From Candidatus Aenigmatarchaeota archaeon (lineage in GTDB: Archaea > Aenigmatarchaeota > Aenigmatarchaeia > Aenigmatarchaeales > Aenigmatarchaeaceae), in assembly GCA_043802485.1 (NCBI GenBank), contig JAZDKZ010000006.1, positions 71,497 through 135,496 on the forward strand: a stretch of 64,000 nt of DNA, written 5' to 3'. Under the pieces are notes generated by a model. The model had not been told where the DNA came from, made no database searches, and saw only the letters and a program-made list of their open reading frames with translations. Every line of letters begins with the position of its first letter. Positions within the stretch are counted from its first letter, which is position 1. Shown one piece after another: positions 23,306 through 51,978 of the stretch. The position numbers and the translations under genes were made by a program.

Positions 23306-23674
23306 ATGGCCAAGAAAATAATGGTTGTGGACGACGAGATAAACATAGCAGAACTTGTCAAAGCTATACTTGAGCATGAAGGGTTCGAGGTTATAGGACT
23401 GAATAACGGACAAGCGTGCTTGGAGAAATTGAAAACAGTCAAACCGGACCTGATACTCATGGACATGATGATGCCTAGGATGAGCGGACGAGAAACAACA
23501 GAAAAAATAAGGGCCAACCCAAAAACCAAGAACATCAAAGTTGCATTTCTAACCGTGGCAAGGTTCTCTGAAGTGGGCAAGGGTAAGCTAAGGGATTTGA
23601 ACGTCTCGGATTACATCACAAAGCCTTTTGATAATAACGACTTGATAGAGCGCGTGAAGAAGGTTGTCGGCTAA
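23306..23674 (+). CDS. single-domain response regulator (CheY-like receiver)
   Basis: IMVVDDE, phospho-acceptor LILMDMMMPRMSG, conserved T (FLTV) and K (YITKPF). Confidence 0.9.
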   Translation: MAKKIMVVDDEINIAELVKAILEHEGFEVIGLNNGQACLEKLKTVKPDLILMDMMMPRMSGRETTEKIRANPKTKNIKVAFLTVARFSEVGKGKLRDLNVSDYITKPFDNNDLIERVKKVVG

Positions 23675-24210
23675 TCAAGATCCATTGTTTTGTCTGCAAA
23701 CATTTTCAAGTCATTGATTAATTCTCTATTTTCTTTTTCTGGAACACTGTCACTTTTCAGAGCAATGAAAATTTTTTTGACATCTTCATTCTTGTTAGTT
23801 AAGCCATGAGTAAATTGAAGTACAGAGAAGCTTTCTTGATATATCAATAAAGCAGATATTGTGTCAAAAAGCAAGACGTTGCATTTTTGCTTTTTGATTA
23901 CATTCTCTATTGCCCGCTTGATCATTTTTATGTTGTTTGGTGAGCTGACAAACGTACAATTCCTATGCGATTTTAATTTTTCATAATGGCTGCTTAGAAC
24001 ATCAACAAAGAAGAAGAATTTTGTATTTATTTTGTTTTTCCTCAATTCGTTCAAGACATCTTTATATGGCCTGCTTAGGCACACATAGCATATCTTGCTC
24101 TTTGATTTCTCTACAGATAGGACTATCTTGTTTAGCTGATTCATGTATTGTGCTTCGCTTAGCAAAATAAGTAAGAACTTGTTCTGGGTTGTTTCTTTTA
24201 TAATATTCAC
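23671..24210 (-). CDS. KaiC/RecA-fold-like protein lacking a Walker A motif (probably inactivated)
   Basis: 179 aa; strand-helix pattern of KaiC-like domains (ICYVCLSRPYKDVLNEL..., VLLFDTISALLIY, IFIALK) but no GxxGxGKT; GTG start with GGAG 11 nt upstream. Confidence 0.45.
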   Translation of the reverse strand: MNIIKETTQNKFLLILLSEAQYMNQLNKIVLSVEKSKSKICYVCLSRPYKDVLNELRKNKINTKFFFFVDVLSSHYEKLKSHRNCTFVSSPNNIKMIKRAIENVIKKQKCNVLLFDTISALLIYQESFSVLQFTHGLTNKNEDVKKIFIALKSDSVPEKENRELINDLKMFADKTMDLD

Positions 24211-24449: not shown

Positions 24450-25246
24450 TGATGAAAGATATAACCAGAAACTTGGTAGGCTTTATAAGACTTAAAGTCT
24501 GCATTTTCATAAGTACGATAGGAATTATCGGGTTTCTTCTTTTCAACAATATTGGTGTTAAGCTGTTATTTGTCTTTTTGGCGTCGTTCCTGATATCCGC
24601 TGGCTCCTATTCCTTGAACAACCTGACAGACACTAAGGAAGACATGATAAACAGAAAAAAAATCAATCCCTTTGTTCTTGGTAAGAGGGGCTTTATACTG
24701 GTTTCTCTCCTTTTTCTTTCTGGACTGTTTTTTTCAATGTTTCTGTCTTTTTATTCAATCGTATTTTCTTTGATAGGAATTCTGACGAGTATACACTATT
24801 CCTACTTTAAGCTCAAGAAATATTTTTTGGTGAAAAATCTTTACACCGGTTTTGGAATCAGCATAGTGTTTTTGGTCGGCACCAGCAAAATAGGTCTCGA
24901 CGTTTTGTACTATTACTTTCTAATCCTGTTTTTCATTGTGATTATGAGTATGATTTCTGATCTTAGAGACTATGTTGGAGACAAGGCGATTGGTTTCAAA
25001 ACTCTCCCAGTTTTTTTGGGATACAGCAGAGCATTGAAAATAGTATCTGCGTTGATAAGCATATTTTCGTCGTCTCTTCTCCTTTTTAGTCGCATTATAA
25101 TCCTTCTGCCTTTTTCTCTGGCAATAATGTATTCCCTTTACAAGAACAAACCTTTGGTTTCGCATACTTTGGGTTTGTATTCCTTTATTTTTCTAATGTT
25201 TTGGTTAGTTCTAGGAAGTGTGTTTAATGTGTATGGTTACGTTTGA
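24449..25246 (+). CDS. UbiA-family membrane prenyltransferase
   Basis: 8-9 TM helices; Asp-rich motifs NNLTDTKEDMINR and DLRDYVGDKAIG. Confidence 0.8.
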   Translation: MMKDITRNLVGFIRLKVCIFISTIGIIGFLLFNNIGVKLLFVFLASFLISAGSYSLNNLTDTKEDMINRKKINPFVLGKRGFILVSLLFLSGLFFSMFLSFYSIVFSLIGILTSIHYSYFKLKKYFLVKNLYTGFGISIVFLVGTSKIGLDVLYYYFLILFFIVIMSMISDLRDYVGDKAIGFKTLPVFLGYSRALKIVSALISIFSSSLLLFSRIIILLPFSLAIMYSLYKNKPLVSHTLGLYSFIFLMFWLVLGSVFNVYGYV

Positions 25247-26276
25247 GTGGGACAATTGTGACGCAAGGGAGAAGGTAAGAAAATTTGAAATGACAAATTC
25301 TCTAAGCTGGGTAGTTTTGGAGCTTACAAGCCTTTGTAATTTTAACTGTGTTTGGTGTTACGCTAATTCGAATACTCATGGTAGTCATATGAGTAAGAAA
25401 GATTCAAAAAGAATCATTCGTTTGCTAGCCGACAATGAAATAAGACAGATCACTTATTCAGGGGGAGAACCTTTGATGTACCCTTACATCAAGGATGTTG
25501 TGAGAGAAGCCCATGAGTATGGTATGGTTGTTCACATGAATACAAACGGCTACTTTCTAACAAAAAAGATTGCCGAGGAGTTGCGAAGACTTGGTCTATC
25601 TCAAGTTCAGATAGACATTGATAGCCTAAAATCTGAAACACATGACAGAATACGAGGTAAAAGCAACTCTTTCTATAGGGCGGTTAACGCATTAAAAAAT
25701 GCGAAAGAGGTTGGTATAACATGTGTTTGTCAAACAGTATTGACCAAAGTCAATGAAAAGGAAGTTTTAGACATATTCAAATTTGCCCGCAGTTTAGGAA
25801 TACAGCGTTGCAGGGTTTCTGACATGACTCACGAAGGCCGCGCGACAGAAAAGTCGGATATGAGACCGACTGATTATATGAAAACTCTTCAGAGTCTTTC
25901 TGGATTTTCACACAATACAGGTGTAAAAAGCATAGAATGTGGTGATCCTATATTTCCTTTGAACTATAAAGATGAGACTGAGATTACGGGAGGTTTTTGT
26001 CCTGCAACAAAAGGCATGTTTACTCTTATTTCTAATCATGGCGGTGTTTATTTTTGTGGCGTATACAGAAAATTACTATACAATGTTTTTAATCTCATAG
26101 AACATGGAGAAAATTTGAAAGAATTTCACAAGATGAGACTCGAAAAGTTCTTAGAAAGCAATATTCCTTCCAAGTGCGGAGGCTGTAGGCATTACAAAAT
26201 TTGCCGTGGCGGCTGTCCTGCCAGACGGGATTGCGAGAAAGATATCGTTGATTACTGGTGCAATAACTTTAATTAA
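25227..26276 (+). CDS. radical SAM enzyme with C-terminal SPASM domain
   Basis: CNFNCVWC (Cx3Cx2C) cluster motif, GGEPLMYP, C-terminal CGGCRHYKICRGGC (Cx2Cx5Cx3C); start uncertain (25218/25227/25290); overlaps the UbiA 3' end. Confidence 0.85.
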   Translation: MCMVTFEWDNCDAREKVRKFEMTNSLSWVVLELTSLCNFNCVWCYANSNTHGSHMSKKDSKRIIRLLADNEIRQITYSGGEPLMYPYIKDVVREAHEYGMVVHMNTNGYFLTKKIAEELRRLGLSQVQIDIDSLKSETHDRIRGKSNSFYRAVNALKNAKEVGITCVCQTVLTKVNEKEVLDIFKFARSLGIQRCRVSDMTHEGRATEKSDMRPTDYMKTLQSLSGFSHNTGVKSIECGDPIFPLNYKDETEITGGFCPATKGMFTLISNHGGVYFCGVYRKLLYNVFNLIEHGENLKEFHKMRLEKFLESNIPSKCGGCRHYKICRGGCPARRDCEKDIVDYWCNNFN

Positions 26277-48487: not shown

Positions 48488-49219
48488 ATGCCAAAGAAAG
48501 CTTCCGTTAAAGGTTCTTCTAGTGGTTCTGATTTTGAGAGGATTCCCTCTGGGATACCTGGTCTGGATGAATTGATGGAGGGAGGCTTCCCGAAAGGTTC
48601 TACTAATCTGGTTTCTGGTGCTGCCGGTACGGGCAAGACCATTTTCTGCTCACAATTCATTTGGGAAGGCCTACAGAAAGGTGAATCGTGTATGTATATC
48701 ACATTAGAGGAGAGACCGCAAGACATAATGGATGATGTCAGTAGGTTTGGCTGGGATTTTGAGCCGTATATTAAGGAAAAGAAGCTTTTCTTGGTCTATC
48801 AGGACCCGTTCCAGATGACTGATGTTACTTCTCCTCTGTTGGATGAGATCAAGCAGAAGAATGTTCAGCGAGTTGTTATCGACTCTACAGCCATTTTTGG
48901 CATGTACTACAAGGAGCCGTTCGAGATTAGGAAGCAGTTGTTCAAGCTTCTGAACGGTCTGAAGGACATTGGGGTCACCAGCGTCATAACCTCCGAGCTG
49001 CCTGAGGAGACGAACCAGCTTGCCAAGTTCGGTGTCGAAGAGTTTGTGGTCGACGGCGTCATTATTCTGAGATATATCGGCATAGGTGGGGAAGATTTTG
49101 TGAATCTGCAGGTCAGGAAGATGAGAAGAACCAAGCATGCTAACGCATGGTTCCCCATGACAATATCAGATAAAGGTATTCGGATAAAGAAAGAAGAACG
49201 AAGAGTATTAATGAAGTGA
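48488..49219 (+). CDS. single-domain KaiC/RadA-like ATPase
   Basis: IPSGIPGLDELMEGGFPKGSTNLVSGAAGTGKTIFCSQFI (Walker A), RVVIDST (Walker B-like). Confidence 0.88.
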   Translation: MPKKASVKGSSSGSDFERIPSGIPGLDELMEGGFPKGSTNLVSGAAGTGKTIFCSQFIWEGLQKGESCMYITLEERPQDIMDDVSRFGWDFEPYIKEKKLFLVYQDPFQMTDVTSPLLDEIKQKNVQRVVIDSTAIFGMYYKEPFEIRKQLFKLLNGLKDIGVTSVITSELPEETNQLAKFGVEEFVVDGVIILRYIGIGGEDFVNLQVRKMRRTKHANAWFPMTISDKGIRIKKEERRVLMK

Positions 49220-49223
49220 GGAA

Positions 49224-49853
49224 ATGGGGCTTTCCTTAATAACAAAACTTTTGATTTCAAAGCAGCTTAGATTCGAAGATGGTAGGATAGTGTTCTTAGA
49301 GGAACCCATGGCTTTTGTTCCAATTGAGTTTTATATTCATTTAACAAAGGAGATAAACAAGAAAAGAAGAGACAAGATGGAGGTGTATTTGGATGCATGG
49401 AAGGCTGGAGTCATTTTCATGCGTAGTGTAGCAAAGAGATACACCATGAGTAGGTTTGAGGAAAGGTACAATGAGGCTATGGAAATAATTTCCTCCGCAG
49501 GTTTCGGCGACTATCAGACTTTGGATTTTGTACCTACTAAATATGCTCAATTTAAGATATTCAACAATCCGATAGCAGAAAAATTCTTTCCCTCCAAGAA
49601 ACCAATAGATCATGTATTGCGGGGCTTCAACGCTGGAGGGGGTTCCCCGGTTCACGAAAGAATCATTAATACTATTGAAACAGAATGCAAGGCTGTTAAT
49701 GGCAAATACTGTATACACCTAAACGGTGCTACTGAGGTGCTGAAGCAGGCCAAGTACAAGAAATTTGTAAAGGACCAACTAGACTTGCCATTTCTATTAA
49801 AAGAACAGAAAAAATTCCTCAAAGAAATAAATTACAAAGAGATAAAGCCCTAG
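49224..49853 (+). CDS. V4R-domain protein
   Basis: LRFEDGRIVFLEEPMAFVPIEFY N-terminal pattern and GFGDYQ...VLRGFNAGGG...ETECKAVNGKYCIHL V4R core. Confidence 0.6.
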   Translation: MGLSLITKLLISKQLRFEDGRIVFLEEPMAFVPIEFYIHLTKEINKKRRDKMEVYLDAWKAGVIFMRSVAKRYTMSRFEERYNEAMEIISSAGFGDYQTLDFVPTKYAQFKIFNNPIAEKFFPSKKPIDHVLRGFNAGGGSPVHERIINTIETECKAVNGKYCIHLNGATEVLKQAKYKKFVKDQLDLPFLLKEQKKFLKEINYKEIKP

Positions 49854-50734
49854 AAAAGAAATAAGCTTAGCAGGAAGAAAAGGAAAGTAATTCTTCCAAA
49901 ACTCCATGAAATTTCTCCTGTCTTCTTCGTTGGATTTTTATAAACTTTTATTTCAGGTATTATGAGTGCGATGAACAATATGCCAGACAAAATAACGAAA
50001 GACAAGTTCTGAAAGCTCATATGGTAAAAAGTTAATAATGTAACAGGAAAGAAAATCATAGTTCCTATTATATTTAGTCTTGATGCGTTCTTGACACCAT
50101 ATTTTGTCACTATTGTCTTTTTTCCATGTATGTCATCTCCTCCCATATCCTTGAAATCTTTGAGTATTGAAAAGAAAGAAAACAATAATGTTAAAGCCAT
50201 TGATTGTAAAAGTATTTGATTCGTCATGATTAATGTATTTGTAGAAAGAACAAATCCCGCATATATTGTTGTGAACATAGAAACAAAGCCTAGACTTAGA
50301 TTACCTAAGATTAATCTGTCTTTTAGGGATATTGGGGGAGCAGAGTATGCTATGCTGGCTATACTCATCAGCAGAATCGATAGGAAAAATTTTACTGAAA
50401 CATACAAAGCCAGTGCGTTCCCTAACAAGTAGCATGCAGAACAAAAAATTATTACATCCTTGACTTTTATGGACCCCCTTTCTAAAGGTCTGAACGGCAT
50501 ATTAATTGAATCTACTTTCATATCGAAAAGGTCGTTTAACGCTGAACTTCCGTTGTATATTAAGAAGACTACAACTGTCAAAATTAATATAGGCAAAAAG
50601 TTCATAGTTGTAGAAGAAAGAACAAAACCTAATATGGAAAGTATAATCACACTCAAACTATTCCAAGGTCTGCCTAATTCAAGTAAAGAAGTCATTTTGT
50701 TCTTCTCTAATAGTTTGGAAAAAAACCTTTCCAT
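49850..50734 (-). CDS. UbiA-family prenyltransferase (DGGGP-synthase-like)
   Basis: LNDLFDMKVDSINMPFRPL and KDFKDMGGDDIHGKKT Asp-rich motifs, 8-9 TM helices; 4-nt convergent overlap with the V4R gene. Confidence 0.8.
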   Translation of the reverse strand: MERFFSKLLEKNKMTSLLELGRPWNSLSVIILSILGFVLSSTTMNFLPILILTVVVFLIYNGSSALNDLFDMKVDSINMPFRPLERGSIKVKDVIIFCSACYLLGNALALYVSVKFFLSILLMSIASIAYSAPPISLKDRLILGNLSLGFVSMFTTIYAGFVLSTNTLIMTNQILLQSMALTLLFSFFSILKDFKDMGGDDIHGKKTIVTKYGVKNASRLNIIGTMIFFPVTLLTFYHMSFQNLSFVILSGILFIALIIPEIKVYKNPTKKTGEISWSFGRITFLFFLLSLFLF

Positions 50735-50766: not shown

Positions 50767-51186
50767 CTAGAAGACGTCTTTAACCTTCTTTACAGAAATT
50801 ATATTTTTCGGGTCAAAGCCGTCCATAAATTCCAGATTCTCCTTCAGGCTCGCCCACTTGTAGTCCTTATGGTCCTTTGACAGCTTGATCTTTCCTATGG
50901 TTTTGCACTTGAAGACGACACGGACAACGCGGAAGATGCCTCGGCCCTTTCTCATTATGTTGGAATGTATGCCGAATAGCTTGACGCTTGTCAGCATCGT
51001 GCTGGTCTCCTCCAGAATCTCCCTTCTGAGAGCTTTGAGCAGGTTCTCACCAGGTCTGACCTTGCCCTCAGGCAGCTGCCACCTGCCTTTGTTTGTCATG
51101 TTCTTGTCACTTCTCTGCAGAACAAGGTATTTTCCATCTTTCTCTATGAAAGCGGATGCAACCAGAATAACAACTTGACCGGGCAT
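50767..51186 (-). CDS. NUDIX hydrolase
   Basis: Nudix box GKVRPGENLLKALRREILEETS. Confidence 0.85.
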   Translation of the reverse strand: MPGQVVILVASAFIEKDGKYLVLQRSDKNMTNKGRWQLPEGKVRPGENLLKALRREILEETSTMLTSVKLFGIHSNIMRKGRGIFRVVRVVFKCKTIGKIKLSKDHKDYKWASLKENLEFMDGFDPKNIISVKKVKDVF

Positions 51187-51213: not shown

Positions 51214-51978
51214 TTAAAATTTTTTGGCCTTGTTCCAGAGTTCTTTGAAATAGGTCCTGAACACACTGATCATGGCCGGGCTGTTGCTCCAGAAAAAATC
51301 CGACTCTAATGGATTGTCTATCCTCATGCACATCTCCCTGCTGTCCACGATTCCTATCCTTGGGTGGACGTCCATGGGCAGTATCCTTATCTGAGCTCCC
51401 TGCTTCTTGTACCACTTGGCCCTTGCCATTTTCGATTCGTCTAGTTCAGAAGTCCCTATTATCTTTATTCTTATTCCTTTTTTCAGGGCCTTTGAATAAG
51501 CATTGTCCAGCAAGGAGTTTCTGGAAAACCTTGATGTTGTTGCCATGCCTTCTTTTTTAGTCATTTCCACCATCTCGGCAGCTTTTTCAAGAAACGCCTG
51601 CCTGCCCCTTCCGGTCCACATGCCCAGGTTCTCCTTTTTATTCTGGAAGGGCTTTAGCTGGTCAACAATCATGCTGGTTTTCCTGTTCAGCTTCTCTATC
51701 TCCGACTTTTTGGCGTCTATCAACTTCCTAAAGGCATGGTCTGTCTTGACAGCCTTGAACCTTTGGGGTTTGGAGTTCTGCTCCTCTGCCAAGGACTTGT
51801 CCACAAGCTTCCTCATTACATTGTATATCTTGGACTGGGGTATCTTGCTTTTCTGAGAAAGAATAGAAGCAGATAGAGGACCGTGGATTGACAAAGCCAA
51901 AAAGGCTTTGGCCTCGTATTCGCTCAGTCCGAAGACTCTAAGGTCCTGGACCAGTTCTTGTTTCAACATAATAACCAT
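51214..51978 (-). CDS. TrmB-family transcriptional regulator
   Basis: LRVFGLSEYEAKAFLALSIHGPLSASILSQKSKIPQSKIYNVMRKLVDKSL wHTH typical of TrmB, with a C-terminal effector-like domain. Confidence 0.8.
   Translation of the reverse strand: MVIMLKQELVQDLRVFGLSEYEAKAFLALSIHGPLSASILSQKSKIPQSKIYNVMRKLVDKSLAEEQNSKPQRFKAVKTDHAFRKLIDAKKSEIEKLNRKTSMIVDQLKPFQNKKENLGMWTGRGRQAFLEKAAEMVEMTKKEGMATTSRFSRNSLLDNAYSKALKKGIRIKIIGTSELDESKMARAKWYKKQGAQIRILPMDVHPRIGIVDSREMCMRIDNPLESDFFWSNSPAMISVFRTYFKELWNKAKKF

Follow-up and report, generated by a model that had tools for sequence, protein, structure and literature searches.

The window analyzed here is a 64,000-nucleotide (nt) stretch of contig C6 (JAZDKZ010000006.1) from a 769 kb, seven-contig, 89% complete genome whose proteins have close relatives annotated as belonging to Candidatus Aenigmatarchaeota, which is a DPANN lineage. 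It contains two loci in which a gene for a KaiC-like ATPase and a gene for a V4R or V4R-like protein converge on a gene for a UbiA-family prenyltransferase (Table 1). This twofold layout had been proposed in a first-pass annotation of the window, and we were able to confirm it at both places. In locus 2, V4R2 starts 4 nt downstream of KaiC2 and faces UbiA2, with the two stops overlapping by 4 nt (CTAG, common to both genes, 49850..49853). In locus 1, a small gene that we call small1 precedes KaiC1, with a 4 nt overlap of the small1 stop and the KaiC1 start, and the start of V4R1 overlaps the KaiC1 stop by 8 nt. V4R1 in turn faces a radical SAM (rSAM) gene, and these two stops overlap by 8 nt (TTAATTAA, common to both genes, 26269..26276). 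The overlapping 3' ends are thus of the lengths that the first-pass annotation had given, and its open reading frames (ORFs) were all present at the positions it listed, apart from the longest ORF for UbiA1, whose TTG start codon (24446) precedes the assigned 24449 by 3 nt.

Table 1. Genes of the two KaiC-V4R-UbiA loci and their flanks (positions within the window; lengths in amino acids, aa).
Gene	Product	Position	Strand	Basis and remarks
KaiC2	Single-domain KaiC-like ATPase, 243 aa	48488..49219	+	PF06745, 1.6e-65; K2 clade of KaiCs adjoining V4R2
V4R2	Stand-alone XylR_N+V4R-type ligand-binding protein (predicted), 209 aa	49224..49853	+	AlphaFold model and Foldseek; metal-site residues
UbiA2	UbiA prenyltransferase, putatively accessory, 294 aa	49850..50734	-	PF01040, 7.6e-30; sister to housekeeping UbiA3 group
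KaiC1	Single-domain KaiC-like ATPase, 224 aa	27284..27958	-	PF06745, 9.6e-36; K1 clade 100/100, long stem
V4R1	Predicted two fused V4R/Bet3-like modules without Cys/metal site, 340 aa	26269..27291	-	Model topology; hhalign
UbiA1	UbiA prenyltransferase, putatively accessory, 266 aa	24446..25246	+	PF01040, 2e-21
rSAM	Radical SAM/SPASM enzyme, second gene of UbiA1 operon	25218..26276	+	PF04055, 1.6e-31 (110 bits); Fer4_12, 39.6 bits
small1	Small protein with invariant TTGKLGNSNRIMLPKK motif, 108 aa	27955..28281	-	Lies before KaiC1 at almost every type-1 locus
	Walker-A-less KaiC/DUF835-like protein, divergent from UbiA1	23671..24210	-	PF05763, 1.2e-4; FlaH-like, 1.9e-5; conserved type-1 flank
	NUDIX hydrolase, upstream of UbiA2 on the same strand	50767..51186	-	PF00293, 1.8e-16
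	TrmB-family transcription regulator, heads TrmB-NUDIX-UbiA2 string	51214..51978	-	PF01978, 3e-19

Domains were called using Pfam and NCBIfam models, with cut-offs of 26.6 bits for KaiC (PF06745), 31 bits for V4R (PF02830), and 34.2 bits for UbiA (PF01040). KaiC2 and KaiC1 both exceed the KaiC cut-off (221.1 and 123.7 bits, respectively), and the GxxGxGKT, (D)R.VID, and E..F..DGV motifs are kept in the clades to which they belong. KaiC2 carries the Walker A motif GAAGTGKT, the catalytic pair TLEE, and the Walker B motif VVIDS, and KaiC1 carries the Walker A motif GGPGTGKT and the Walker B motif LVIDN. Neither protein is a circadian KaiC, as each has one domain rather than the two tandem domains of a protein of ~500 aa, and their scores against TIGR02655 are 155 and 50 bits, compared to a cut-off of 546. 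Likewise, UbiA2 and UbiA1 exceed the UbiA cut-off (104.4 and 76.8 bits), and two Asp-rich motifs can be read from the translation of each, i.e., NDLFDMKVD and KDFKDMGGD in UbiA2 and NNLTDTKED and SDLRDYVGD in UbiA1, where the first Asp of the first motif is replaced by Asn. The rSAM product did not reach any NCBIfam equivalog; its best matches there were SPASM maturases and heme-type rSAM proteins, far under their cut-offs.

A search of the whole genome (~700-850 genes) returned three UbiA genes and three genes with strong matches to KaiC. Two of the three KaiC genes lie within two genes of two of the three UbiA genes, and both of these pairings are the ones in the window. The third UbiA, UbiA3, lies outside loci 1 and 2 and scores 262 bits against the equivalog model for digeranylgeranylglyceryl phosphate (DGGGP) synthase, NF009521, whose cut-off is 296 bits; UbiA2 and UbiA1 reach only 105 and 55 bits against the same model. 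Over the DGGGP synthase (DGGGPS)-type models as a group (cut-offs 269-296), UbiA2 scores 105-122 bits, and its scores against the ChlG/BchG models, at 77-93 bits, are close to these. UbiA2 was considered as the cell's DGGGP synthase and rejected, as UbiA3 takes that role per both the UbiA tree described below and the equivalog score. The genes for geranylgeranyl diphosphate (GGPP) synthase, geranylgeranylglyceryl phosphate synthase, the DGGGPS-like UbiA3, and a geranylgeranyl reductase (GGR)-like protein were all found at other sites of the genome. Because this housekeeping archaeol set sits elsewhere, and because UbiA1 and UbiA2 fall far under the DGGGPS cut-offs, the two prenyltransferases of the window are, judging from their sequences, accessory enzymes for extra, specialised prenylation steps.

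The third KaiC gene, KaiC3, also lies outside the window. It is flanked (C1:5862-12730 of the same genome) by a gene for a 600-aa PIN/KH-type ATPase on one side and two genes for TadB/C- or ArlJ-like membrane proteins on the other, after which come several pilin-like genes, so that its surroundings have the makeup of a type-IV-pilus or archaellum-like operon.

Assigning the middle gene of each locus was less direct. The first-pass annotation had labeled both as V4R proteins, and this label stands for V4R2 by virtue of its modeled fold and metal-site residues, whereas both proteins miss the Pfam V4R model and V4R1 has no family match at all. V4R2 scores 13.8 bits (E 0.066) against PF02830, below the cut-off; 7 of its 24 relatives match the model weakly (best E 0.0064), and several relatives have been named "predicted hydrocarbon binding protein" by JGI. 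The AlphaFold model of V4R2 (pLDDT 89.6) was used in Foldseek searches, where it matched the phenol-bound sensor domains of DmpR, MopR, and PoxR over their whole extent with E values from 6e-9 to 3e-7 and TM scores of ~0.7, as well as the V4R protein MJ1460 (E 6e-5). Three residues of V4R2 (E152, C155, and C163) are invariant in its family and a fourth, D129, is at least 90% conserved, and all four align with the zinc-site region of MopR. Based on these results, we accept V4R2 as a V4R-type ligand binder, and its predicted fold and metal-site residues fit a protein that binds a small hydrophobic ligand.

For V4R1, no Pfam or NCBIfam match was retrieved, pairwise comparison with V4R2 gave no similarity, and hhalign with narrow profiles for the two gave 0.3%. 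The predicted structure of V4R1 (pLDDT 93, pTM 0.92) contains two tandem repeats, each with the helix and strand order of V4R2. Foldseek yielded marginal matches to Bet3/TPC6, BcsD, and H-NOX (E ~1e-3), folds which also appear lower in the V4R2 list. With a broader V4R2 profile of 67 sequences, hhalign aligned V4R2 residues 6-119 to residues 194-297 in the C-terminal half of V4R1 (89.6%, E 1.9e-6) and V4R2 residues 22-169 to residues 26-164 in the N-terminal half (52%, E 1.5e-4). No sequence similarity was detectable between the two halves themselves (hhalign 0.3%), and the V4R1 positions that align to the V4R2 metal site hold no Cys cluster. A PDB sequence profile search with the family profile (A2) returned chance-level matches only. 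Taking the model and the profile alignments together, V4R1 is likely a fused double V4R-like protein whose metal site has been lost. A 479-aa ORF in another genome (L136, G098:C11) is matched by the V4R1 and V4R2 profiles over the same stretch and has two Cys-bearing V4R cores; its C-terminal region is Roadblock/LC7-like in look, and it has no KaiC neighbor.

The first-pass annotation had suggested examining how often the KaiC-V4R pair occurs next to UbiA genes in archaeal genomes, and the linkage proved to be far above chance. To describe the version represented by locus 1 (type 1), ~13 kb around each of 40 type-1 family members was annotated with our own hidden Markov models. Of the 301 genomes sampled from the phylum, 45 carry the V4R1 family, and these 45 belong to a single class of Aenigmatarchaeota. 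The canonical order is small1>KaiC>V4R1> <rSAM <UbiA. All 37 of the 37 loci with enough sequence have a downstream UbiA gene on the opposite strand, and a KaiC gene lies within two genes of V4R1 in 36 of 41. The gene that directly faces V4R1 is most often rSAM (22 of 41 loci), followed by UbiA itself (10) and a polyprenyl-synthase-like gene (4). Some type-1 loci also carry a second UbiA, an HMGL-like synthase, and an aminotransferase, per Pfam. The Walker-A-less KaiC/DUF835-like gene (cluster c0) is found next to UbiA in 30 loci, where it occupies position +3 or +4 relative to V4R1. At one locus (L006), a transposase has broken the type-1 order, and small1-KaiC still adjoins the UbiA operon. 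In our genome sample, UbiA1-clade genes were seen beside V4R1 only.

The version represented by locus 2 (type 2) is more widespread and more varied. The V4R2 family was found in 84 of the 301 genomes, with a KaiC gene within two genes in 50 of 61 loci and a UbiA gene within three genes in 25 of 56. When the count is extended to isoprenoid genes in general (UbiA, GGPP synthase, GGR-like flavoprotein, polyprenyl-synthase-like protein, squalene/phytoene synthase, and the unassigned c4 family described at the end, with the identities of the enzymes checked using Pfam), 43 of the 56 loci have at least one within three genes. Type-2 loci commonly carry GGPP synthase and GGR-like genes, in which they resemble the archaeol pathway, as does UbiA2 in being sister to the DGGGPS-like UbiA3. 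At least 16 genomes contain both module types together (with type-2 E values below 1e-15). A scan of species genomes placed the V4R2 family in lineages labeled Diapherotrites/Iainarchaeota, Micrarchaeota, and "Marsarchaeota" as well, where the genes are arranged either co-directionally as KaiC>V4R>UbiA>GGR (the complete AR10 genome included) or as KaiC>V4R> <UbiA <GGR. UbiA2 orthologues are present in these other DPANN phyla, and the KaiC, V4R, and UbiA proteins encoded there all best match the locus-2 copies of the window. The linkage is kept in at least four phylum-level DPANN lineages at 35-45% protein identity, through inversions and insertions. As a control, we inspected loci of KaiC paralogues that are without V4R, pilus-type ones among them, and 0 of 16 had a lipid gene within 1.5 kb. 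K2-type KaiCs, in turn, keep a GGPP synthase, GGR, or UbiA gene beside them even where the V4R gene is out of range. We conclude that the association of KaiC/V4R pairs with isoprenoid genes goes well beyond chance.

Two known systems help in reading this arrangement. Archaeal single-domain KaiC-like ATPases, ArlH/FlaH included, have been put forward as hubs of signal transduction (Makarova, Galperin and Koonin 2017, as cited in PMC5847659). KaiC1 and KaiC2 resemble these hubs in having a single RecA/KaiC domain of ~225-245 aa, intact Walker motifs, and small putative input or output genes as neighbors, and KaiC3 resembles ArlH in the apparent pilus/archaellum type of its operon. They differ in having a V4R-fold protein as partner and isoprenoid enzymes as conserved neighbors. 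The second system is that of the XylR/DmpR/MopR/PoxR activators: the V4R2 model superposes on the whole of their sensor domain, the Glu-Cys-Cys of the zinc site is kept, and a ligand-binding domain is paired with an ATPase, as is predicted here. Unlike in those activators, V4R2 stands alone, the ATPase is of the RecA/KaiC type and a separate polypeptide, and there is no sigma-54 interaction or helix-turn-helix domain. Furthermore, the genomic context is isoprenoid metabolism rather than aromatic catabolism, and V4R1 is doubled and seems to have lost the metal site.

We read the window as containing two anciently diverged modules of a KaiC-like ATPase and a V4R-fold protein, in which the V4R protein may bind an isoprenoid ligand and gate KaiC, and KaiC may set the output of the prenyltransferase pathway; we give this reading a probability of roughly 50%. 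Each module forms an orthologous unit that numerous genomes retain next to a UbiA operon of its own. The V4R protein would bind a hydrophobic isoprenoid or prenyl-lipid ligand, and the ligand-bound form would gate the ATPase or autophosphorylation state of the translationally coupled KaiC, much as a V4R sensor domain controls the AAA+ ATPase in XylR/DmpR-type activators. The state of KaiC would then set the output of the adjacent prenyltransferase pathway, whether by way of the AbrB-like small1 product (type 1), by way of TrmB (in the type-2 locus of the window), or by acting directly on the enzymes. In the case of small1, a weak match to PF04014 (AbrB/MazE) was obtained for 6 of 19 members (best E 0.0029) and none for the window copy, and a PDB sequence profile search gave chance-level matches only; going by the weak PF04014 matches, it is a putative AbrB/MazE-like DNA binder. 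The TrmB protein is a candidate DNA-binding output for locus 2. The order TrmB-NUDIX-UbiA recurs in two other loci (L003 and L004), and TrmB synteny is seen in L003, L008, and L037. More tentatively, the KaiC-V4R pair could be a dedicated and widespread DPANN device that reads or carries an isoprenoid or prenyl-lipid intermediate and gates accessory UbiA pathways in a nucleotide-dependent manner. It would then be the first identified controller of archaeal isoprenoid-lipid chemistry, and would have diversified by module duplication into a version with a single, metal-bearing V4R and one with a doubled, metal-free V4R, serving different pathways in one cell.

We would like to note several points that weigh against gating by a ligand-bound V4R protein. 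The mechanism as proposed is built on gene linkage and on an analogy between folds, and the assignment of small1 as a DNA binder is weak. V4R1 is without the metal site, its likeness to V4R in Foldseek is only marginal, and its homology to V4R2 rests on hhalign values from single comparisons. About a quarter of the type-2 loci have no isoprenoid gene within three genes, and one genome (G082) keeps the V4R2-KaiC pair with no UbiA gene detectable anywhere in it. The deep nodes of the KaiC tree described below have moderate support (71/90 and 81/93) and involve branches flagged as long. Finally, genes in the comparative loci were called with a crude longest-ORF caller. In G082, the V4R2/KaiC pair (L129) is convergent and adjoins genes for small membrane proteins (clusters c15 and c16); the pair may thus be able to work without a prenyltransferase, and its core function may be broader than prenyltransferase control.

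The main rival to gating is a carrier or hand-off role, i.e., a substrate-handling machine in which V4R is a soluble carrier of a hydrophobic prenyl substrate or product and a hexameric KaiC/RecA-type ATPase powers its loading, its extraction from the membrane, or its hand-off to UbiA. The co-directional KaiC>V4R>UbiA>GGR string suits this idea, as in one locus (L244) its genes are separated by gaps of only 4, 38, and 15 nt, like those for the subunits of one pathway. V4R-fold relatives such as Bet3, to which the Foldseek matches to Bet3/TRAPP point, bind acyl chains, and type-2 loci are often without an obvious DNA-binding gene. In purple bacteria, the clustered genes bchJ-bchG-bchP encode a V4R protein, a UbiA-type bacteriochlorophyll synthase, and a geranylgeranyl reductase, and BchJ has been proposed as a carrier in bacteriochlorophyll synthesis. 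We treat this parallel as a lead only: the V4R, UbiA, and GGR families occur in both systems, but the bacterial one belongs to a tetrapyrrole context and has no KaiC. Weighing against a carrier are the presence of the AbrB/MazE-like small gene (a weak assignment) in nearly all type-1 operons and of TrmB beside locus 2, and the fact that V4R2 finds its best structural counterparts in sensor domains through which an ATPase is gated. In addition, the known members of the KaiC family, such as ArlH and KaiC, are switches or regulators, and we know of no KaiC-like lipid chaperone. On balance, we consider a carrier unlikely and continue to favor the gating of KaiC by V4R.

A further alternative takes up two suggestions of the first-pass annotation, namely that the two loci are an old duplication that has kept its geometry and that convergent overlapping transcription may itself be regulatory. 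It holds that a whole ancestral KaiC-V4R-UbiA triad was duplicated and that convergence was kept because overlapping antisense 3' transcription is regulatory. In its favor, both loci show the three families in one and the same order and have overlapping stops, and type 1 is convergent without exception, with stop overlaps at 30 of 42 junctions. Type 2, in contrast, has a convergent UbiA in 10 loci and a co-directional one in 14 (V4R2>UbiA> <KaiC), so that its geometry varies within the phylum as well as between phyla, and the suggestion of a kept geometry is not supported here. Stop overlaps are found at 26 of 40 convergent type-2 junctions. Across the source genome, they also occur in 43 of 124 convergent pairs (35%), with -4 as the commonest value, and we therefore rejected the overlap as a special feature. 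Because type 2 is often co-directional and stop overlaps are common genome-wide, convergence does not seem to be required, and we infer that the convergent overlapping 3' ends reflect genome compaction, not a functional requirement; the proposed regulatory role was thus not borne out.

The phylogenies of the two families also speak to this alternative. In the UbiA tree (54 sequences), a split with support of 95/88 separates the UbiA1-type proteins from a group made up of both V4R2-linked clades, the housekeeping UbiA3 clade (one member per genome), and two other clades, and the housekeeping clade has one of the V4R2-linked clades as its sister (97/86). When UbiA1 and UbiA2 are constrained to form a clade, the tree becomes 23 log-likelihood units worse (approximately unbiased (AU) test, p = 0.075), meaning that a UbiA1+UbiA2 clade is disfavored and that the AU test does not formally reject it, which leaves a point in favor of triad duplication. 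The KaiC tree, built from 75 sequences with RadA as root, unites the K1 clade (100/100, long stem) with two KaiCs adjoining V4R2-like genes (81/93). One of these two, the copy from G035 (L069), is the nearest outgroup of the K1 clade, and this join was flagged as one between long branches. The K1 group is sister to K2 plus a clade of 11 unlinked KaiCs (98/86), with support of 71/90 for the union, and the pilus-type and ~300-aa KaiCs fall outside it. Within the source genome, KaiC2 is 40% identical to KaiC3 and 28.5% identical to KaiC1, and UbiA2 scores higher to UbiA3 than to UbiA1. From these trees and comparisons, a duplication of the KaiC-V4R module is plausible and one of the whole triad probably did not occur, so that the old duplication of the first-pass annotation may hold for the module and is not favored for the prenyltransferases, where UbiA2 groups with UbiA3. 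We regard triad duplication with regulatory overlap as improbable. The history that best suits the data would be one in which the type-1 V4R gene was also doubled internally and lost its metal site, and the two modules were joined to prenyltransferases of different UbiA subfamilies.

At one locus (L069, G035:C5:26367-39374), both module types flank a single UbiA1 operon: small1>KaiC>V4R1> <PPS-like <UbiA (PPS-like being polyprenyl-synthase-like) is followed by KaiC>V4R2-like>. The second KaiC and the second V4R gene match in pieces or with internal stops, and may be decaying.

The distribution of type 1 is patchy. It is found in the genus of the source genome (in G000, G119, and, partially, G282), and there was no other genome of the same family or order among the matches listed by name. 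The KaiC1 and UbiA1 copies of the window group with copies from distant families (G140, G155, and G226), and the GC contents of UbiA1 (35%), V4R1 (32.6%), and UbiA2 (32.5%) fall well short of the 41.8% averaged over the window. The patchy spread, the grouping with distant families, and the low GC content of V4R1 and UbiA1 suggest that the whole type-1 cluster was horizontally transferred. The patchiness and the low GC content also suit the weakest alternative, in which the genes have no functional link and are adjacent through compaction and inherited synteny or through co-transfer on a mobile low-GC segment, but this is very improbable given that the linkage is kept across divergent phylum-level lineages despite rearrangement, that members of the UbiA1 and UbiA2 clades stand beside V4R genes only in the genomes sampled, that V4R-free KaiC paralogues are without lipid neighbors, and that co-movement as a unit itself argues for joint function.

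A literature search, which did not take in the content of Makarova et al. 2017, retrieved no work joining V4R with KaiC or V4R with archaeal prenyltransferases. New here are an analysis that sets both module types side by side, a test of co-duplication by phylogeny, and an examination of the geometry claim. To our knowledge, little has been learned of how the synthesis or remodelling of isoprenoid membrane lipids is regulated in archaea. DPANN archaea are believed to rely on hosts for lipids, and the source of the window is a tiny symbiotic archaeon. A KaiC-V4R pair beside accessory prenyltransferases, GGPP synthase, and prenyl reductases provides concrete, clonable candidates for a control or hand-off step, and supplies the KaiC-like "hub" ATPases of archaea, which are otherwise enigmatic, with an input (V4R) and a target (prenyl chemistry) that can be tested. 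The presence of two paralogous versions in one small genome also makes for a natural comparison of ligand specificity.

Two further families were encountered at these loci. The cluster c4 family consists of ~290-aa proteins with invariant LDDxLDE and KDIxDIxxD motifs, encoded at L098:5086-5967 and ~12 other loci; the gene faces V4R2 in ~10 genomes. No Pfam match was obtained for c4, and a PDB sequence profile search gave chance-level matches only. We considered c4 as a polyprenyl or terpene synthase, and it could not be tied to either (0.4% to GGPP synthase and a weak 25% to the polyprenyl-synthase-like family) and is left unassigned; it may be a new enzyme of the isoprenoid-synthase fold. Lastly, one type-1 cluster contains a gene for a squalene-hopene-cyclase-like protein of 518 aa between rSAM and V4R1 (L007:6995-8551), which hints that the UbiA1 pathway may make or modify a cyclisable polyprenyl compound.

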